From: a virus
Strand: one strand, 5' to 3'
Length of the DNA: 64,000 nucleotides
Virus genome (UHGV): UHGV-1351772
Made by a program: the position numbers and the translations under genes. The stretch's first letter is position 1. The number at the start of each line of letters is the position of its first letter. Below, in pieces: positions 2,836 through 54,787 of this stretch. The notes beneath the pieces are model-generated. The model was given only the letters and a program-made list of their open reading frames with translations, was not told the DNA's origin and did not search any database.

Positions 2836-3379
2836 TTCTGTTACCTCGTACTGTTACTACTACTCGTTCTGTTGTACGTCGCTATACCCCGACGTGTGGG
2901 TTAATGGGACGCGTTGACGTCTGATGAGGCGCAGCAGGCAGTGGCAGCAATGACAGCAAGGGCAGCAATGGTACAAACGCCAACGCGAATAAAAAACGCT
3001 ACTGATCAAATAAAACGACAAGGAAAGTATGAGAAACAAAGACCAGTACCGTCGAGTTAACGCGTAACTCTCAATTCACATTACAGGGTATTCACGTTGC
3101 ACTTAGGGGAAATACCCAGTAATTAAATTCTTGGTGGGAGTAGGTGGGAGGATACCCTCCCACCGTACCACCGTTTCGGCAGTCGTGCTACCAGGACCCT
3201 ACGGCCCTAAACGTAAGTCCGAACTTAATCGGTAGGTGTTTACACGTTTTTAAGGAGCTTTCTACCCGTGAGCAAGAGCAGAAAATATCAGAGCAGGCGT
3301 AACTCAGTTGAAGGCTGACGGGAAAATCTACCCAACATACGTCTGTTCTAATTAGGTTAGTGGGCCGAAGCCCACTGTT

Positions 3380-3616
3380 TTAGCCGTATAGGTAATCAGT
3401 GTAAAGAACCTCCCCCTCAGGATAGTGCGTTGTACCGAGGAGTGTGGCTTCGAGGGTAACCTCTTCCACATCACCATCCGATAACAACTCGCCAGTCCAA
3501 CCTATTTCGGATGGAAGAATTGCACATGCAGCTTCTTCCGTAGGGGCTGCCACAATCATTGCGGAATATTCATCCCAACCAACGTGGTCGGTTCTTTCTA
3601 CTAGATACAAGTTCAT
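3380..3616 (-). CDS. small acidic hypothetical protein; start uncertain (ORF extends to 3640)
   Basis: ORF 3380..3640; internal ATG at 3616 preceded by GGGAG at 7 nt spacing. Confidence 0.3.
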   Translation of the reverse strand: MNLYLVERTDHVGWDEYSAMIVAAPTEEAACAILPSEIGWTGELLSDGDVEEVTLEATLLGTTHYPEGEVLYTDYLYG

Positions 3617-3763: not shown

Positions 3764-4264
3764 TCAAAACAGCTTAAGTGTTTGCGTTTGACCACCGCTG
3801 TACAGGTCGTAACGTTTCGCCACTTCCACCGCAGTGGGGGCGTCAACGCCAGCACCTAATGCACCCAGGGCATAGTGAGCACCTGAGCCTATCGCATACG
3901 GCGGCTCTACAAACACGTAACTGGCGTATTTGTTGTCTTTGCACTTCGAGGCGTCGATAACGCGTCCGTCTGTCAAAACAGCAAGTACGATAAAATCAAT
4001 CTGCTCGGGATACGTCGTTTCGAATCTAACTCCACCCCGTTCGATACCGCCGAAACGTTCAAGCGTGAGTTCTTGGCGCACGGATTGCAATGCGGCGACA
4101 TCACCTGCCAAACCGATCGCTTTCACGTCTTCACCCAAAAGCTTCCACGACGTACCCTCAGGCGGCGTGTGAATCTTACGGTATTGCGTGGCAGCACTAC
4201 GTTCTTCCACGGTGACTTGACCGTCGCAAGCTAACGTCTTTCCGTCGAAAACAATCGTGGTCAT
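3764..4264 (-). CDS. HslV/proteasome beta-subunit-like Ntn-hydrolase (putative threonine protease)
   Basis: N-terminus MTTIVFDGK...DGQ resembles HslV (Thr1 after Met removal) and has the GSG motif AIGSGAHYALGA; AGGAA RBS 7 nt upstream of ATG. Confidence 0.7.
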   Translation of the reverse strand: MTTIVFDGKTLACDGQVTVEERSAATQYRKIHTPPEGTSWKLLGEDVKAIGLAGDVAALQSVRQELTLERFGGIERGGVRFETTYPEQIDFIVLAVLTDGRVIDASKCKDNKYASYVFVEPPYAIGSGAHYALGALGAGVDAPTAVEVAKRYDLYSGGQTQTLKLF

Positions 4265-4626
4265 GACAGATTTCCTAACTCATTGCCGACCTCCTGGTCA
4301 GCAGCTACCATCGAATTCGTGCAACGCGTAACATGTTCACGAATCGCTCGAGCCAAACCTTCACGAACGGCTACCAGGAGACACTCTCGATAGCTCGGAT
4401 AATGCGCAATAGGGCTAGGGATGTGTTCCACGCAATAACCATCGTGAACTTCCACCACTACCGTGATGTAAATCTCGACGGGTTGGTAAATCCGCACGCT
4501 CTTGATCAAATCAAGTAACGCTGGCTCCGTGCATCCCCAGTCCTCCGGGGCTTTTAACAGCACTGCCAACTCATCGAGCCTGTACTGAACATCCAATTCC
4601 ACGTTAGTGGTGTTTTTGGAATCCAT
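4261..4626 (-). CDS. hypothetical protein; probable start at internal ATG 4626 (ORF extends to 4710)
   Basis: AGGAG 8 nt upstream of ATG at 4626; stop overlaps the HslV-like start as ATGA. Confidence 0.45.
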   Translation of the reverse strand: MDSKNTTNVELDVQYRLDELAVLLKAPEDWGCTEPALLDLIKSVRIYQPVEIYITVVVEVHDGYCVEHIPSPIAHYPSYRECLLVAVREGLARAIREHVTRCTNSMVAADQEVGNELGNLS

Positions 4627-5518
4627 ATTAAAATCTCCTGTCGTGGTCTGTGTCACACCAACAGGAAATCCTGTAAAAAAATAATTCAGCTGCGTACCGG
4701 CGTTTCTCAACGGGAGTACGCACCCCTCTCGTCTTTGCGAGCCGTCAAGCTAGAGGACATCACACTGCCAGCGCTACCTGGAGCAGGGTCATTCGACGCA
4801 ACGTCGTAATTCGCATTTTGGCCGCACCTCTGGGAGCGTATCCCACCGTCGGCTGCCCGCAGGTAAGTTCTACGGACCTTTCGCCAACGTCGCTCCCAGA
4901 GGCTGCCACGGTTCACTCGGATTTTCTCATGTGGTCCACGCGTCACTGATAGCGCGGGTTCCCCAACACTCGTAAGTCGGGGAACGGTACCGAGCACCTG
5001 AACTCTGGGGATTCCAAAAATCCCTCGGGGTAAGTACGATTCGCAAATCGATTTTCAAACCCCATAGTAAAACAAACTCCAGTGTTAGGCTGAACGTTTT
5101 GTTTTTCCCAGTACACGGCGAAATAAATTCCATGCACTCGAAAAAACAACCCCCAAACCAACACCCGGTCAGGGGGCTTCGAGCTCTGCTGAATCTTCGC
5201 AGACAGAAATCGTGTTTGAGCTGTGAGCAGTAAACTCCTGAACTCCGAAAAATCTTCGTGGTTGGATTTGTAAATCATCCCACGCAAATCCTCCGAACAT
5301 ACCATAGGGTTTTAACGTTCGAAAAAGGGGAATGGGTTTTACCCCCCTCGGTCAGGTGTTCAGGGTAGACCCCCTACCCGATCCCCCAGGTGGGGATTTT
5401 ACCCTGGTGAATTACCCCGGGTTCGATTTTCGGATTTTCTGGAAAATACCGCTCACCGATCCCTACCCCCTCAGGGGGGTCAGACCGAGATCAGATCTCA
5501 TAATAAGGATCGCGCGCG

Positions 5519-5614
5519 TTTTATATATATTTATATATAATATATATTATATATAATAATTATTATATTAATAAATATATTAATATATTTATTTAAATAA
5601 ATAATTAAATAATA
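5519..5614. repeat. 96-nt pure A/T low-complexity tract (possible DNA unwinding element)
   Basis: no G or C from 5519 to 5614; flanked on the left by cgcgcgcg (5511-5518). Confidence 0.8.
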
Positions 5615-5682
5615 CCTAAAGGTATTATTATTTTGATCCTAAAGGAATAATATATTTATAAATAAATATATTATACTATACG

Positions 5683-5700
5683 CGCGTGCGTACGCACGCG
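5683..5700. repeat. 18-bp perfect palindrome cgcgtgcgtacgcacgcg (alternating purine-pyrimidine)
   Basis: sequence equals its own reverse complement; sits at the right edge of the AT-rich tract. Confidence 0.85.
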
Positions 5701-5758
5701 TATAAGGAAGAGATCTTGAGATCAGATTTTTGAGAGAGTTAAAAATTTAAGATCGATC

Positions 5759-5779
5759 CGAGAGACTTAGTGTCTCTCG
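5759..5779. repeat. inverted repeat/hairpin cgagagac-ttagt-gtctctcg
   Basis: 8-bp perfect arms with 5-nt spacer. Confidence 0.7.
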
Positions 5780-5835
5780 AAGAGTATTAAAAAATTTAAA
5801 AGATCAAAAAACCAAAGCTAGAGAACTACTCAACC

Positions 5836-5862
5836 TGAATCTTCAGTGTGTGAAGATTCAGT
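5836..5862. repeat. inverted repeat/hairpin ctgaatcttca-gtgtg-tgaagattcag
   Basis: 11-bp perfect arms with 5-nt spacer. Confidence 0.75.
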
Positions 5863-6331
5863 AAGTTGATCAATCCAGCTGATCCGCTAGTACGCGAAGC
5901 GTGAATGTTTTTTTGATCGTCGCGGCGGCCGGTCCGCCGACCCGAGGGTGGGGTGGAACTGGTCGAGGGGAATGCCCCTCAGGCGCTCTCAATCGCGCTG
6001 TAACGAGTTAAACGGGGTTCTGGTACCCAAGTGTACCCCTTGAGGAGATTTTTGCGTCAAAATGCGTTCTAGAGCGTTTTACGATGGGGTGGGTTTTCGA
6101 CCCACTCAGGGATAGGGGTTGGCGTGACAGCTCGAACGACAAAATCGTGGTTTCATGGCGTTGAGTGAAAATAAATTCAAAACCCACAACCAAAAACACC
6201 CTCAAATTCTTCGTAGGAAGCTCTCTGACGAGATAAACGTGGGTAAGGGGTACGAACGTACCGCCTGGAAAGAAAAATGCGTTAGAATCGCTCTCAGCGC
6301 GTTTTTGATTTTTGGGCAAAAAAATAAAACG

Positions 6332-6351
6332 GGGGAGACTTCGGTCTCCCC
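6332..6351 (-). terminator. intrinsic terminator-like hairpin downstream of the 6362..7486 gene
   Basis: ggggagac-ttcg-gtctcccc (UUCG tetraloop) with A-run on plus strand upstream, i.e. T-run after the hairpin on the minus strand. Confidence 0.5.
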
Positions 6352-6361
6352 AGAATATTTT

Positions 6362-7486
6362 TTACAGAGTCGTCAGTTCTTTTGACGGATAGTACAGTTT
6401 CACATCGACCAAACTGTAACCGGTGGCGTAGAACACCTGATTTCCGACCGAAGCAATAAACCCTTCAGGGTCGATAACGTCAACCGAGAAATCGGAATCG
6501 AATAGCCAGGTTTCTTGTTCCCCTTCCCGTTCGAAAACGGCAGCGTAACGCCCGTATTCTGGGCCTCGGCGGAAACGAAACAGCGTTAATCCTGTCTCAC
6601 GTTCTAAGCCATAAATCACCCCATTTTCTTCGTAGATTTCAGCGCGATTACAGCGTGTAACCGTCAACAACGCAGGCCGTTGTGTCGGGATTGTTTTAAA
6701 CGGTGAAGGCCCATCGTATGTCGTTGAAACCCAATCACCGAGACTGTCTAACGCCAGTGCTCGATACGCGATAGGTGACTTGTAGTTACACAACCTGTTG
6801 CCCTCGGTGTACATCGTGTATTCGATGCGTAACGTAGTACCGATGATGTCGTTCAAACTCAGTTTGTAGTGCGCTAACTGGGCTTGTATACGACAGGACA
6901 GAATTGTACACAGGAAAGTGTGACCCTCTGTAGAACGGCACACAACTCCGTAATCGGTCACTGCCAGTAACGTGGCATCTGTTTTACGGACGGGTTCCAG
7001 GCGAAACACCTCATTTTCAGTTTCTACGAGGAACTGCGAAACCGCTTGGTTTCTGGATTTAGCTTTAATCGTATCGAACACATCACCCGCTTTTACGATT
7101 AACGGTTCTACCACGTTTACCTGAAACGGCAGCGGTTTAGTTGGGTATTGTCCCAACGTTGTAATCGTTACTGAGTTGAGTTCTGGGTCCGATGCGTCAG
7201 GATCACCAGACAACCAATACGTTAGCCATTTCGACAACGTCTGGGGAATGACGCGCGTGGTGTAAAACAGAATTTCGCCATGTAAACCTGCCTCTGCCAA
7301 TTCGCGTGCAAGAAACGAGTTGACCGCGTCGTAGGTACCGTTGCGCAAGATGTCCATACCCCCGACACGAACCAAATCACAAATTACGCCGTGTGGAAGA
7401 ACCCACATTTTGACGTTTTGATTTCGGTCGATGGTACCTTCGCGCAGCATTCTGTGCCAAACGGGTTTACGTAAGTAATTTCTCAT
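6362..7486 (-). CDS. hypothetical protein (374 aa)
   Basis: six-frame ORF; TAAAGGAG-type RBS context upstream of ATG. Confidence 0.6.
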   Translation of the reverse strand: MRNYLRKPVWHRMLREGTIDRNQNVKMWVLPHGVICDLVRVGGMDILRNGTYDAVNSFLARELAEAGLHGEILFYTTRVIPQTLSKWLTYWLSGDPDASDPELNSVTITTLGQYPTKPLPFQVNVVEPLIVKAGDVFDTIKAKSRNQAVSQFLVETENEVFRLEPVRKTDATLLAVTDYGVVCRSTEGHTFLCTILSCRIQAQLAHYKLSLNDIIGTTLRIEYTMYTEGNRLCNYKSPIAYRALALDSLGDWVSTTYDGPSPFKTIPTQRPALLTVTRCNRAEIYEENGVIYGLERETGLTLFRFRRGPEYGRYAAVFEREGEQETWLFDSDFSVDVIDPEGFIASVGNQVFYATGYSLVDVKLYYPSKELTTL

Positions 7487-8992: not shown

Positions 8993-9232
8993 TCAATGGG
9001 GCCCTGACATTACCACGAGGTGTATAGAGTAGACCATATTTAGCGCATAGGTAGCTGACGAACCTGCTACCATCAGACCAAATACTGCAAATGCCTGTAC
9101 ATACCGTGTTTTTCGTAGTGGGAAACCTTGCGAACGTCCGTATTGTTTTATCGCTTGGTAACTCTCGCGGATCATTTTATACGTCGCTATCCACGAAAAG
9201 AACACAAGTAAATAGTAAATTGGAGCCATCAC
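8993..9232 (-). CDS. small putative membrane protein (79 aa, two hydrophobic helices)
   Basis: ORF overlaps the terminase stop by ATGA; two hydrophobic segments. Confidence 0.45.
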   Translation of the reverse strand: MMAPIYYLLVFFSWIATYKMIRESYQAIKQYGRSQGFPLRKTRYVQAFAVFGLMVAGSSATYALNMVYSIHLVVMSGPH

Positions 9233-11337
9233 TTCATCCTCTGGCGTTGGATAAGCTCTCTTAAGCTTTCCATTGACGCCACGTTTTGTGTATCAGTGTT
9301 AAGTTGAGCAATGAGGGACTGGAGACGGTTACGAGCAGCCATTGCTTGAACCGGGTCTAATAACCCGTTTGTGGTTCGCACAAGACGCTCAATTTCCCCC
9401 ATCAGTTCCTGCTGTCGCGCCTCCTCCTCGAGTTGTAATTCCTCATCCACCCCTTCACGATTTTCGACTAAATTACGATTGCGCATCATCAATCGACTGT
9501 TGTTGATTTCATAATGCCCCAGGTTATTCCCAAGCAGCAATAACCACATCGCAAGTAACCAAGAAATCACGAGGTCGTCATGACCTGAAGCTTTGTGGTC
9601 AATACGACCATTTTTCTCCACGAGGTTAAGTATCTGGTCGATGAGTTCTCCGCAACGGAGTTTATCCGCGGATAAGCGCAACGCTGTGGTGAATACCTCA
9701 CCGTACAGTTTACGACGTTTTTCCTGGTCGGTTGAGAAACCGATATATTTACGGAATTTATTCCAGAACTTCTCAGCGTTACCAATAGGTCCACGGTGAT
9801 ACTCTTTGTAGAGATCGTCCGTACGTGAGTAGTCCTGAGTGATTCTCACAAATAAACGGCGATGTAAGTCCGTGACGCGAGACTGTAACTGCAGGATAAT
9901 TGCATCAGCCACAGACGAGCCAGTAGACCGTCGTTCCAGGATTAGTACCGTGTTAGGATATCGCACCATAAAATCCGCTAAATGAATCGCGAAAGAGATA
10001 ACGTTAGATTCGTTAACGGTTAATTTACCTGCATACTCTGCGGTCACAGAGTTAACAATAGACATGGCGATCGCGTCTCGACCCACCGCCTCAGAGGTAT
10101 CCAACCCGATGACGTGTCGGTCTTTGAGCTTCGTCATCATCTCCTCTTCGGTGTAGTACCAGTCGGTAACGTAGTTTTGTGGTGAAATATCTTTAAACAC
10201 AGCACGCATACGGGAAGCATTCATACGATCTGCATCTTCCGCTGAGAACGGCTTGTTCAGACCACCGGTAGTCCATTCACCCCCGAAGTCACGACGGATC
10301 TGGTCAGGGGTACCTTTGGCGTTCGCAATCATTGCCGCTAACTGCTCATCGCTGGTACCGAGCTGACGGTGGTTGTACTTCACGTAGAACATGATACGTG
10401 GGACTTCTGCCGTGGAGTTAGAACGGATGATATCAATGAGCTGTTTACGGGTTGGAATGTCGATATAGCGCTCATCCCACATAATCCCCGACGTCATCAG
10501 CTCGTACATGTACTTGCCTTCTTCCGTCGCTAAGTCACCAGGGGTTGTTGCGAATACGTTACCGTAAGGAACACCTTCCGCTTCGTTAATACGGCGAGCC
10601 GCTGTACCGGATGCCAGGGCTGCCGGTAGAATGTGGTGTACGTTTTTGGTAAAGGGGCCTTCGTCCGAGAACAGACGACCAGCGGTGAGTCCACGACCGA
10701 TACCGTTAGCAGATTCTGGGTCGTTTTGGCCGATACCCGTAATCAGTTTGTTACCCTGGGCTAAACACGCAAAAGTTTCGCGGTTATCTGGATCATCTGG
10801 ATGTGCTGGCCACAAGTAAGACGGTAGACCGTTACGTAGTTGCTTAAGTTTGTTAATGGTTTCTTCACGCAGTGCCGGTCCTTTTGTGATAAGAATCGTA
10901 CGAGAGTTTTCCAGAAACCGAATTAACCACAATAGTAATCCGCTCATCCCGACGGTTTTACCATGCTGACGGAGGAACTCGACGGCGGCGTCGATGTTGT
11001 TGAAGAAAATCCAATACATCGAAAAGTTACCACGGTCGATACGGAACGGCGACCCGTATTTCATACCGTCCGCAGGTACCCTGACGCACTCTCGAAACCA
11101 GTACCAAGGGTTTTCAGCACACTCGATGGCGATATACGCTTTCTGCTCGTCCGTTAGGTTTTCGTCAAAAGGATCGACCCCTTGCAGTAAAGGGTTATGT
11201 AAGGCGAGATGAATATAGTAGTGCTTTACACCCAGCTTTTTTAGGATATTTGCAAACTTGATAAACGATTTGTTTGTGGTTTTATCGTCAACAATAGCGC
11301 CTGGATAATAACGCCAGTCCGATTCACGTAGTATCAT
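9229..11337 (-). CDS. terL: terminase large subunit (T4 gp17-type ATPase/nuclease)
   Basis: Walker A-like RQHGKT; C-terminal nuclease motif ASGHDDLVISWLL matching the T4 gp17 GYHDDLVMS pattern; GAGGAG RBS. Confidence 0.85.
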   Translation of the reverse strand: MILRESDWRYYPGAIVDDKTTNKSFIKFANILKKLGVKHYYIHLALHNPLLQGVDPFDENLTDEQKAYIAIECAENPWYWFRECVRVPADGMKYGSPFRIDRGNFSMYWIFFNNIDAAVEFLRQHGKTVGMSGLLLWLIRFLENSRTILITKGPALREETINKLKQLRNGLPSYLWPAHPDDPDNRETFACLAQGNKLITGIGQNDPESANGIGRGLTAGRLFSDEGPFTKNVHHILPAALASGTAARRINEAEGVPYGNVFATTPGDLATEEGKYMYELMTSGIMWDERYIDIPTRKQLIDIIRSNSTAEVPRIMFYVKYNHRQLGTSDEQLAAMIANAKGTPDQIRRDFGGEWTTGGLNKPFSAEDADRMNASRMRAVFKDISPQNYVTDWYYTEEEMMTKLKDRHVIGLDTSEAVGRDAIAMSIVNSVTAEYAGKLTVNESNVISFAIHLADFMVRYPNTVLILERRSTGSSVADAIILQLQSRVTDLHRRLFVRITQDYSRTDDLYKEYHRGPIGNAEKFWNKFRKYIGFSTDQEKRRKLYGEVFTTALRLSADKLRCGELIDQILNLVEKNGRIDHKASGHDDLVISWLLAMWLLLLGNNLGHYEINNSRLMMRNRNLVENREGVDEELQLEEEARQQELMGEIERLVRTTNGLLDPVQAMAARNRLQSLIAQLNTDTQNVASMESLRELIQRQRMK

Positions 11338-13026: not shown

Positions 13027-15543
13027 TTAACCCTTGATTTTCAGATACTGGTTCAGCTGAACTTCACCATTCAGATACCGCTCGTTAACGCGATCCAAAA
13101 ACGCGAACCCGAGTTCGTTAACTTCTACGGTTTGGTATTTCACATGCGGATGGAGCTTGACAAACGCTTTATCGTAACCGATGTACGCGGGGTCGAACGG
13201 AAGCAGGTCTTTATACCGCTCCATAATCTCATCCAACTGTGTTGTTGAAATACGATAATCTGGATCGTCTTCCACGAGGGTGAGAACACCCTGTAAGTAG
13301 TCCCACAGGATTTTATTCAACGTAGGTGAATATAGGTGATACAGGTGCGGTAAAGGCACCGGGTTCTGTGGAGGCGGTGTCGGGAACCAGTTAGTCATGT
13401 AATTTTCTACTCGACTATCCAGATCACGCGCTACGTCTCTGAGCGCATACGTGTTCCCCGTTACCAGTGTACGCAACGGTATTGTAGGGTCGTCGACAGA
13501 GTAGGGATAACCATCATCAACAATTTTGACGCCTACCGTGTTGTCCTCGCGGAACACTACCTCGTCGCGTAATAGCAAGGAACCGCCAGCAACGACACGA
13601 ATAACTTTGTCGTCACGACAATCGAATTGGTTGTTATTTGATAACAGCCCGCTTGAGACGAAACCGTGTTTCGGAATACGAAGTTCACCGGTGACACCAC
13701 GACAACGCACCGCGATGTGGTTTTCATCAGTATCGCTCATCCAAGCTTTACAGACTACAACGATTTCTGGCCAAATGACGTGATAATCGATACCGTGTAC
13801 CAGAGGGTGTCCGTTTAACCACACTTCAACAGTTTCCATCGGAATCCACAGAGTGCGTTGTTTACCTTCTTGGTTTCGGGCCAGAATAGGAATACGAATC
13901 TCCCCTTCCCTGACCGCCACATCGATTTCGAAATACAGATGACGATCGTCGTAAATCACCGTAGGATGACGACGAGTACGGTCCACAGTCCAGGTAATGC
14001 TATTACCTTCACGGGTGTAATCCGTCCCTTCCACTGCCTTCAGATATTCGTCTCGTGGAATGTCATCGATAACCTTACGTAACCACAAGTTAACGTTTTG
14101 GCCTTCCTGAATCTCGAAATCGGCGGCGTTATCAACGATAGTTACTGTCTCGGCTTTATCGCCTTCAATCGCCTCGATAATTCTGGTGTTGGGGTTGCGT
14201 GCTTGGTATACGTCGTAACCACGGTTTTGATGTGCCTCTAACAGCAAACCATCGCCATCATACTCGTACACAGTCGAGTTGGTTGCCAATAACGCAGGTA
14301 AGGTAGCGCGGTACCCTCCTTCCGTTAACGTAAGACGCTGAGGGGTATCGGCGGCATAACGGCTTACGGCGTTGTAACCGTAGGCATCAGTACACAAATC
14401 GCGCGTAATATTCTCAAGCTTAGCTGCTGCCAATCGGTTAAAAGCAGCTTGTTCCAGATTAGCAGCCTGCCACTCTGTTACGTTCGCATTCGCACCGATC
14501 ATCGCGTCGATAATCAGGTCATCTGATAATCGGTATAAATCGTGTATGTGCGATGAGTTAAACAACGGCGTAATATCCAGATAGTCATCGCGGATAATCA
14601 GCCTGATGATCAGATCGTCCAGGTCGGTGATTGAGCCACTAAAAACGTTGCGATATTTTGCAATGCGTTCAGTCGGGATTGATAAATCGTTCCATGTTAG
14701 CTGACGTAGCGCCTGGTGGCGGTGACGATGGTAATAACGCCCCCGGCCTTTCCAATAAAGCTGGATCTCCGCATCGTTGTTAAAAATCCAGATGCCATCT
14801 TTTTTCGGAATATGGAGCAAGTATTTTCGTTTGCTATCCAGTTTGGACATAAACGTTTGTAAGTCGCCGCAGCGAAACTCTACAACACGACGAACGCGAC
14901 CATCGACGCGGATGTCGATATCGTCCCACGTTTTAATATCCGCAGGCTTTGGAGAATCAACCAGTTCTCCGTTTAACCAGAACTCAACGTACCCTTTGTT
15001 TTGTTGTTTCAGGTAATTAAACCGATCGATGACCTTTTGGACCTGTTCACGATTCGGCGGTGAATAAAACTCGACGGTCGTCGGGTTGATGTACGGTGCG
15101 TTTTCACCCCCGTTGTAACCAGGATAAATTCGCAGGTAACAAGGGTCGTTGTCCAACCAGGCATACCGATCGGATTGCGGAATAGCCATGTAAACCATTC
15201 CCGCACTGTTACGGTAGAAATAAACGTATTCGGAAGGAATTGTCGTTCCGTTTTCGTTATAGACCTGAATCCAGGTGCTAAAACCGTTTACGCAAGTGGA
15301 CAGTTTCTTCCAACGGTTTAGGGGGATAGCAAGATTCCCCCAGTTTACGTGAAGTTTATCCACCGCATAGGCGTGCCACCACGAATTCTCTTTCGGTAAA
15401 GCGACCGGAATCCGACCGTGTTTGAAAAAGCCGATCGCCCCGGTCTTGGGTGAAAGACGGAAGGGTGCGATGTTGAGCACCCCGTCAAGATATGGACGCT
15501 GCCACGCTTTTTGGATGGCGTGGGCGACCAGCCAGTTCTCCAT
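13027..15543 (-). CDS. hypothetical large protein (838 aa), possibly virion structural (portal not excluded)
   Basis: long ORF in the terminase-containing block; no diagnostic motif recognised. Confidence 0.6.
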   Translation of the reverse strand: MENWLVAHAIQKAWQRPYLDGVLNIAPFRLSPKTGAIGFFKHGRIPVALPKENSWWHAYAVDKLHVNWGNLAIPLNRWKKLSTCVNGFSTWIQVYNENGTTIPSEYVYFYRNSAGMVYMAIPQSDRYAWLDNDPCYLRIYPGYNGGENAPYINPTTVEFYSPPNREQVQKVIDRFNYLKQQNKGYVEFWLNGELVDSPKPADIKTWDDIDIRVDGRVRRVVEFRCGDLQTFMSKLDSKRKYLLHIPKKDGIWIFNNDAEIQLYWKGRGRYYHRHRHQALRQLTWNDLSIPTERIAKYRNVFSGSITDLDDLIIRLIIRDDYLDITPLFNSSHIHDLYRLSDDLIIDAMIGANANVTEWQAANLEQAAFNRLAAAKLENITRDLCTDAYGYNAVSRYAADTPQRLTLTEGGYRATLPALLATNSTVYEYDGDGLLLEAHQNRGYDVYQARNPNTRIIEAIEGDKAETVTIVDNAADFEIQEGQNVNLWLRKVIDDIPRDEYLKAVEGTDYTREGNSITWTVDRTRRHPTVIYDDRHLYFEIDVAVREGEIRIPILARNQEGKQRTLWIPMETVEVWLNGHPLVHGIDYHVIWPEIVVVCKAWMSDTDENHIAVRCRGVTGELRIPKHGFVSSGLLSNNNQFDCRDDKVIRVVAGGSLLLRDEVVFREDNTVGVKIVDDGYPYSVDDPTIPLRTLVTGNTYALRDVARDLDSRVENYMTNWFPTPPPQNPVPLPHLYHLYSPTLNKILWDYLQGVLTLVEDDPDYRISTTQLDEIMERYKDLLPFDPAYIGYDKAFVKLHPHVKYQTVEVNELGFAFLDRVNERYLNGEVQLNQYLKIKG

Positions 15544-54743: not shown

Positions 54744-54787
54744 GATGACTCCTTAGGTCGGGTAGGGTTTACCCTACCCGAGCCTAT

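Follow-up and report, generated by a model that had tools for sequence, protein, structure and literature searches.

Replication origins of the iteron type, such as lambda ori, P1 oriR, R6K and pSC101, carry short repeated words directly beside an AT-rich block, and in Dam-sensitive origins, exemplified by E. coli oriC and the heptamers of P1 oriR, GATC is over-represented around an easily melted AT region. At T4 oriF and oriG and at the primary origin of T7, promoter-like motifs accompany an AT-rich unwinding region, and at the pac site of P1, a phage with its own Dam, clusters of GATC flank a central region. Comparable traits recur in a gene-free locus of 1735 bp (4627–6361, delimited from the list of open reading frames (ORFs) and their translations) in the virus genome UHGV-1351772, of which we analyzed a stretch of 64,000 nucleotides (64 kb), hereafter the window. 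A sequence-only reading had proposed that four short motifs to the left of an AT tract in this locus are iteron-like direct repeats of an origin. We find that both motif types supply the stem arms of a single kind of GC hairpin and are not initiator-binding iterons, a reading that, taken as a whole with the terminator or insulator role argued below, we hold with moderate confidence. An origin marked by the AT tract itself is still plausible, whereas the repeats as iterons are unsupported.

All four motifs exist where they had been noticed: GGGTTTTACCCC at 5334–5345 and GGGGATTTTACCC at 5392–5404, plus CCCCTACCC at 5371–5379 and CCCTACCCCC at 5461–5470. That each adjoins a GATC holds for three of the four, which have one within 8 nt (GATC 5380 directly follows CCCCTACCC and precedes GGGGATTTTACCC by 8 nt; GATC 5458 overlaps CCCTACCCCC), but not for the first motif, which has none within 35 nt. 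Taking at least three direct repeats of about 17–22 bp as the mark of an iteron origin, we found no such array: The locus holds two 11–13-mer copies and two 8–10-mer copies, that is, two copies per type of 8–13 bp, and no longer repeat family. The members of the two pairs are spaced by 60 and 89 bp, corresponding to 5.7 and 8.5 helical turns, and are not helically phased. In first-order Markov simulations of 5308–5475, 37% of trials matched the observed 11-mer pair (at most one mismatch), 25% the three exact 8-mer pairs and 20% both, while the same levels are reached by 9%, 2.7% and 1.9%, respectively, of the other 168-bp windows of the 64 kb. The segment is unusual relative to these other windows on account of its dense G and C runs; as direct repeats, the motifs are not beyond chance given the local composition.

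A comparison of seven sister contigs of the same clade points in the same direction. While GGGGATTTTACCC is invariant in all seven, CCCTACCCCC is changed to CCCCACCCCC in four, the run lengths of GGGTTTTACCCC differ, CCCCTACCC is lost in one contig, and four of the seven carry an insertion of 14–16 nt at 5368. Three of the four copies thus change independently within the clade, and the whole segment is missing from other genera, so that the repeats are not conserved as such; what is retained in every clade variant is the hairpin potential. A search for a nearby initiator by Pfam, PHROGs and PDB sequence comparison recognized none among eight neighboring proteins. The locus consequently differs from iteron origins in lacking a repeat array, phasing, conservation of the copies and a recognizable adjacent initiator gene.

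The motifs lie in a clade-specific spacer of 158 nt (5329–5486) that is rich in G/C runs and short GC hairpins and occurs as a single copy, in the window clade only. Runs of four or more G or C number 8 per 200 bp in its region against a background of 0.66. The anchors on either side, 5297–5328 (CCCTATGGTATGTTCGGA in the window versus CCCTATCGTGTGTTCAGA in Seoulvirus) and 5487–5511, are 158 nt apart in the window and about 20–50 nt apart in other genera, and no second copy of the segment was found in the window or in any compared locus; the spacer therefore represents a lineage-specific expansion, and for want of a second copy we rejected a mobile element. Four hairpins with a GC-rich stem of at least 5 bp and a short loop can be drawn in it. 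The first (5327–5347; GGGG-AAT-GGG / TTTTA / CCCCCC), evident from the sequence and the minus-strand fold, contains the first motif and looks like a weak terminator, with TTTTT after it on the minus strand; its G/C runs vary in length across sister contigs, yet the hairpin potential is retained. The second (5363–5379; GGGTAG-ACCCC-CTACCC) is the inner hairpin of an imperfect inverted repeat of 46 nt (5361–5406), identified by repeat search and folding, which is centered on the GATC at 5380–5383 and whose arms hold CCCCTACCC (5371) and GGGGATTTTACCC (5392). The third, found by a consensus scan on the plus strand, is the terminator-like CCGGGTTCGATTTTCGG at 5417–5433 (CCGGG...TTCGG), followed by ATTTTCTGG. 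The fourth (5465–5480; ACCCCC-TCAG-GGGGGT), from a hairpin scan, overlaps CCCTACCCCC, and although a T is replaced by C in four of the seven sister contigs, its C5/G5 stem is intact. An ORF that overlaps the motif segment (5332–5556, 74 aa) was considered as a gene and rejected, since it is broken by indels of 1 nt and of 14–16 nt in sister contigs.

Hairpins of this kind are not confined to the locus. The word GGGTAG/CTACCC occurs 25 times in the window, 14 times in the 9% that is non-coding, where 2.2 occurrences are expected (a 6-fold enrichment); only three of these 14 belong to this locus, and the other 11 mostly form inverted pairs. Perfect GC hairpins likewise fall outside ORFs in 23 of 40 cases, several of them at convergent gene ends, and the same stem family recurs at other gene ends (11350, 40347, 43160, 48405, 54758, 57463 and others). 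The hairpin at 54758, situated between two genes, holds both motif types at once: TCGGGTAGGG-TTTA-CCCTACCCGA (GGGTAGGG-TTTA-CCCTACCC). The compositional artefact that the sequence-only reading had considered, with the repeats similarly frequent in coding regions, is not literally what we see; yet the motifs are not specific to the AT tract, because they are part of the phage's general intergenic hairpin stock. The feature that had been read as iterons is an ordinary one and amounts to GC hairpins of a type found throughout this phage's genome.

Because the family is common in intergenic DNA, particularly at the ends of genes and at convergent junctions, the GGGTAG/CTACCC and G-run/C-run hairpins are most likely of a terminator or insulator type. 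They share with the intergenic GC hairpins and intrinsic terminators of phages the short stems of G or C runs, the loops of 3–7 nt, the position between transcription units, and the GGGTAG/CTACCC stem words found at other gene ends, some of them T-tailed; they differ in that four to five are stacked here within 158 nt beside an AT/GATC module, most without a clear U tract. In the spacer, the hairpins would block transcription between the AT/GATC core on their right and the minus-strand promoter and structured-RNA gene on their left. Several observations weigh against this assignment: The role is deduced from position and shape; a U/T tail follows only two of the spacer hairpins, 5417–5433 on the plus and 5327–5347 on the minus strand; the fold z-scores of the spacer are unremarkable (−1.3 for the minus and −0.4 for the plus strand); and the G/C runs beside the AT tract may contribute to the function of the core instead of serving as generic terminators, since they recur in every genus, including a doubled GGGGGAGGGG in Cronobacter phage CR5. 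Every related genus indeed has G/C-rich hairpins or G/C runs flanking its AT tract, at one end or at both, and 2–5 runs per 200 bp are found on at least one side in all lineages against a background of about 1, although two loci (L001 and L025) have none on the left and the side and strand vary between genera.

To the right of the spacer lies the core. Its left border (5487–5519; GAGATCAGATCTC-ATAATAAGGATC-GCGCGCG) contains three GATC and is conserved across lineages: The form GATC..GATCTC.TAATAAGGATC at 5487–5511 is kept across genera, and of all lineages only Machinavirus lacks TAATAAGGATC with the CG run: Phage Caitlin (L026) retains TAAGGATC, and pEa_SNUABM_9 (L025) has GTCCTTA instead. 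Neither in the window nor in the 243-kb Seoulvirus genome does the border sequence recur. Next to it is an AT tract of about 157 bp (5520–5676) that reaches 100% AT over 80 bp. No other 100-bp window of the 64 kb has an AT content of 85% or more, and in the 243-kb Seoulvirus genome the tract is alone in attaining 80%. Within the tract, small hairpins surround CTAAAG (5611–5626, AATACCTAAAGGTATT, and 5636–5648), the stems of which differ between lineages (ACC/GGT, ATC/GAT, CTC/GAG, CCC/GGG) with pairing retained; folded as single-stranded DNA, the core has a z-score of −5.8. A right GC clamp (5677–5704), TATACGCGCGTGCGTACGCACGCGTATA, consists of 28 nt of strictly alternating purine and pyrimidine, is nearly palindromic and has a potential for Z-DNA or cruciform formation. 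None of the other strictly alternating runs in the 64 kb is as long, and its homologue holds the same rank in the 243-kb Seoulvirus genome; the resemblance of the clamp to the TATACGCGCGTATA center of the N15 telomere-resolution site we take to be probably a coincidence. The right border (5705–5810) comprises a GATC cluster (GAGATCTTGAGATCAGAT; TAAGATCGATCC), an AT-rich word repeated at 5733–5748 and 5781–5796, and a hairpin, CGAGAGAC-TTAGT-GTCTCTCG, at 5759–5779. Six independent viral or metagenome contigs (L005, L007/L015, L017, L018, L023, L024) of related, presumably circularly permuted genomes end in or at the edge of the AT tract, and many GenBank records were opened in this gene-free locus. 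The contig ends are most likely assembly breaks at low-complexity AT-rich sequence, as other assemblies read straight through the tract.

GATC is concentrated around this tract as nowhere else in the window: There are 14 sites in 5351–5950 against 3.0 per kb elsewhere, and 13 within 350 bp on either side of the tract against 2.0 expected (Poisson P about 2e-7). The enrichment is found in eight of ten loci (7–14 sites versus 0.5–2 expected, P below 1e-3). In the window as well as in the whole Seoulvirus and CR5 genomes, the top GATC cluster and the AT tract coincide, once per genome, and the module is conserved across at least six genus-level lineages. A D12-class adenine methyltransferase of the Dam family, which judging by its family would act on GATC, is encoded in Seoulvirus (L034, 38788–39603), Erskinevirus, Machinavirus and Wellingtonvirus, though not within the 64-kb window.

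In CR5 (Derbicusvirus), the locus is absent from the syntenic place. In its 224-kb genome the most AT-rich window and the top GATC cluster coincide instead at 13.1–13.4 kb, in a 312-bp gap (L058 9080–9392, corresponding to 13,080–13,392 of the record) just downstream of a DNA polymerase gene, from which it is separated by one small gene, CR5_021. The right flank of this relocated module is colinear with the window, where the corresponding words are AGATCAGAT and TAAGATCGATC: It presents AGATCAGATC, TAAGATCGATC, the AT-rich word and then a GGGTAGGTAGG hairpin. Its left flank reads GGGGGAGGGG-CCTAC-GGGGGAGGGGG and thereby includes both a direct repeat of GGGGGAGGGG and a canonical G-quadruplex (G4) motif, GGGGGAGGGGCCTACGGGGGAGGGGG (G5-A-G4-CCTAC-G5-A-G5). 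This motif is preceded, at a distance of 10 nt, by a promoter-like TTTTAAC-N8-TATGCAAC oriented into the AT tract. CR5 shows none of the RNA arms that adjoin the module in the window; since the module is kept without them, it is separable from the arms.

Because the module is single-copy, conserved across genera and kept beside the DNA polymerase gene in CR5, it is plausible that the AT/GATC core is the phage's replication origin. This is the leading reading of the core, which we put forward tentatively and somewhat short of an even chance; a module that occurs once per genome and is kept on relocation would be a concrete candidate for the origin of an SPN3US-like jumbo phage. In such a scheme, the core itself would be a functional cis element, the adjacent AT-rich region at 5520–5676 would serve as the unwinding element, and the GATC sites would be read, in a methylation-sensitive manner, via the Dam-family methyltransferase that related genera with the locus encode. 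Flanking transcription might aid opening or priming, as at the T4, T7 or lambda origins. SPN3US possesses a T4-type polymerase and UvsX, and sequence-independent headful packaging has been proposed for it (PMC5694885), which makes T4-style transcription-assisted initiation a fair analogy and lowers the case for a pac site. For related giant phages, Ori-Finder calls were of low reliability and no termini are defined (PMC12390700), and our literature search found no paper that defines an origin for giant phages of the phiKZ/SPN3US type, nor did it turn up specific information on a packaging (pac) signal or on non-coding RNAs encoded here.

The similarity to described origins is partial. As in Dam-sensitive origins, GATC is over-represented around the AT region and related phages encode a Dam-family methyltransferase; the locus differs in lacking DnaA boxes and 13-mers, and its AT tract is much longer (about 157 bp) and clamped by alternating CG. 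In a nucleus-forming phage, host DnaA and SeqA would probably be excluded. As at the T4 and T7 origins, promoter-like motifs lie by the AT-rich region, but the promoter-like motif of the window type and the RNA point away from the AT tract, whose length is some three times that of the T4 unwinding element. Further observations speak against an origin or are silent on it. A polarity switch in GC skew, a weak test for phages, is absent at the module in the window, in the 243-kb Seoulvirus and in the 224-kb CR5 genome, the skew following gene orientation. Neither DnaA boxes (TTATCCACA, at most one mismatch, 4627–6361) nor an IHF consensus were found at the locus. The eight neighboring proteins have no Pfam match, belong to PHROGs of unknown function only and have no PDB sequence relative. 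Finally, the GATC cluster is weak in both Machinavirus loci (3–5 sites).

To the left of the core and its spacer lies the left arm of the locus, which encodes a structured RNA. RNAalifold, applied to nine sequences of six lineages aligned with MAFFT, predicts a structured core of about 470 nt with 11 helices on the minus strand (4688–5157), including a long-range closing helix (5152–5157 with 4745–4750) and a 3′ hairpin with a GNRA loop (4688–4725). Pairing is preserved in 96.2% of the alignment cells compared with 38–46% in slid controls, and none of 500 shuffles scored as high; 27 pairs are changed on both sides versus 3–6 in slid controls, figures to be read with the structure derived from the same alignment and the independent lineages few. 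The minus strand of 4688–5157 folds about 30 kcal/mol better than the plus strand (−147.8 versus −118.0 kcal/mol), and G-U cells number 105 on the minus and 9 on the plus strand, a count biased by prediction of the structure on the minus strand. The structure is conserved in Seoulvirus, Erskinevirus, Machinavirus, Wellingtonvirus and the L014 clade. No part of the locus matched Rfam 15 at the gathering threshold or at E up to 1 in the window and five relatives, where only tRNAs reached the threshold. The covariation strongly supports a large non-coding RNA absent from Rfam, and the locus yields, besides the module, a previously undescribed structured RNA near tRNA genes. Like the phage RNAs GOLLD and ROOL, it is encoded by a phage near tRNA genes, extends over several hundred nucleotides and has good covariation support; it differs from them in having no Rfam 15 match, in its occurrence in enterobacterial jumbo phages and in the HNH gene that lies inside it in one relative. 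In that relative, Erwinia phage Wellington (L027), the annotated HNH endonuclease gene is inserted on the same strand (9629–10138) and occupies the place of a small hairpin, CGGCG-UUG-CGUCG (window 4794–4806), of other genera; pEa_SNUABM_11, which is related to Wellington, has neither the insert nor the hairpin. ORFs inside 4700–5300 were rejected as genes because they overlap helices that covary as RNA.

With the RNA in view, the remaining explanations of the motifs and the core can be weighed. An extended version of the origin reading would make the core the replication origin of SPN3US-like jumbo phages, with G/C-run elements, among them the four motifs and the G-quadruplex repeat of CR5, that act by nucleating an RNA–DNA hybrid or by binding a phage factor and with the 470-nt RNA controlling initiation; we regard this combination as improbable, though not negligibly so. 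Somewhat less likely still is a transcription-primed origin in which the G/C runs give rise to a G-rich RNA–DNA hybrid or a G-quadruplex that would supply the primer, by analogy with ColE1 RNA II, mitochondrial CSBII and the origin transcripts of T4 and T7. G/C runs do flank the AT tract in every lineage, but their side and strand differ between genera, with none on the left in L001 and L025; CR5 combines a G4 motif with a promoter-like motif aimed into the AT tract, but among the lineages a canonical G4 motif was found in CR5 only. The minus strand of the window offers G6-ATC-G3-TA-G5 at 5389–5370, and the T4-like replisome and UvsX of SPN3US would suit such priming, whereas the promoter-like motif of the window type is directed away from the tract.

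We assign a similarly low probability to the view that the segment belongs to the minus-strand RNA, either as its upstream control region or as a variable 5′ portion, and that the core is a transcription hub, composed of promoters or UP-like elements, instead of an origin. The well-supported RNA begins 150–350 nt to the left, the promoter-like motif at 5297–5328 abuts the segment, the right arm also has conserved structure, and GC skew gives no replication signal; however, the motif-bearing part shares no consensus structure across genera (alifold −7 kcal/mol), and an extreme AT tract with CG clamps, once per genome, far exceeds what promoters need. Moreover, the module does not merely serve the RNA arms, because CR5 keeps it without a trace of them.

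That the motifs are after all iterons, sites for a phage initiator whose binding would melt the AT tract in the manner of lambda ori, P1 oriR or R6K, is very unlikely. Their place directly beside the tract, the restriction of GGRTTTTACCC to two occurrences in 64 kb, both at this spot, the invariance of GGGGATTTTACCC within the clade, a similar GGGGGTTTTCACCCC by a GATC in the same position in Wellington and the true direct repeat of GGGGGAGGGG left of the tract in CR5 are outweighed by the brevity and chance-level occurrence of two unphased copies, by the drift of three of the four copies, by the absence of the segment from genera that keep the AT core, by the use of the same words as hairpin stems elsewhere, and by the lack of an initiator gene among the neighbors searched. 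Least probable of all is a pac site of the P1 kind with the motifs in its recognition flank: GATC clusters on both sides, a terminase large-subunit gene 3.7 kb away, the Dam-family enzyme of these phages and the records and assemblies that open or break here are countered by the CR5 module, which lies by the DNA polymerase gene and, measured around the map, at a distance of about 19 kb from the terminase, by mixed GATC contexts (two of 14 sites fit the TGATC(A/G) of P1), by assemblies that continue straight across the tract, by the T4-like, sequence-independent headful terminase proposed for SPN3US (PMC5694885) and by the lack of defined termini in related giant phages (PMC12390700).

The window derives from an uncultured jumbo phage similar to SPN3US and phiEaH2. 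The protein of one of its genes is 99–100% identical to metagenome and IMG/VR contigs of 220–229 kb, and nucleotide identity to the Erwinia phages phiEaH2 and Asesino (Erskinevirus) and the Salmonella phage SPN3US (Seoulvirus) is about 75% over conserved structural genes. Its SPN3US-like relatives we take to belong to the phiKZ-like, nucleus-forming group. An equivalent gene-free gap exists in Seoulvirus, Erskinevirus, Machinavirus, Wellingtonvirus and the L014 clade, and compared with L006, 4700–5000 and 5300–5700 are 89–98% identical, while most flanking coding DNA reaches only about 75–90%. On the left the locus is bordered by a small minus-strand gene (4261–4626) that adjoins a gene for an HslV-like peptidase and tRNA-Trp; on the right lies a minus-strand gene of 374 aa (6365–7486) assigned to a PHROG of unknown function. 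This gene is also present in CR5, where the AT/GATC module sits elsewhere. Two GenBank records label its product "putative DNA ligase", which neither Pfam nor PDB sequence comparison supports. The gene for the large subunit of terminase, assigned by PHROGs, follows at 9229–11337, about 3–3.7 kb right of the locus. A second gene-free stretch (2860–3380), with GC hairpins at 3143 and 3359, is 99% identical to a relative whose neighboring genes match only about 80–85%; its counterpart in Seoulvirus holds tRNA-Asn and two weaker tRNA matches, none of which were detected there in the window.

The right arm of the locus (5811–6331), delimited by alignment and motif search, contains the conserved blocks GATCGTCGCGGCG at 5915 and ACCCAAGTGTAC at 6025, covarying hairpins and, at 5894, the very stable mini-hairpin word GCGAAGC. 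Its pairing amounts to 83–86% compared with 38–47% in slid controls on either strand, and it may be a second non-coding RNA. It is followed by a bidirectional terminator-like hairpin, GGGGAGAC-TTCG-GTCTCCCC (6332–6351), at the end of the 374-aa gene.

Two minus-strand motifs of the locus resemble promoters. The one at 5297–5328, TTTTTCG-N18-TATGGTATG, is by sequence comparison homologous to TTTTTTAC(A/G)-N14-T(A/G)TG just left of the core in other genera, and the second, TTTTTTTACAGG... at 4650–4681, lies 45–55 nt upstream of the start codon at 4626. Judged by their sequence both are putative promoters, and related TTTTTAC(A/G)...TATG motifs stand upstream of other minus-strand genes. Two promoter-like classes recur upstream of genes in the window, TTTTTAC(A/G)-N7-16-TATG and AGATATTATC-N3-GTGAGA, with sites at 1466, 4681, 48004, 56655 and 62371 (minus strand) and in the upstream regions of 7486 and 52592; these motifs may be promoters for the phage's own RNA polymerases.

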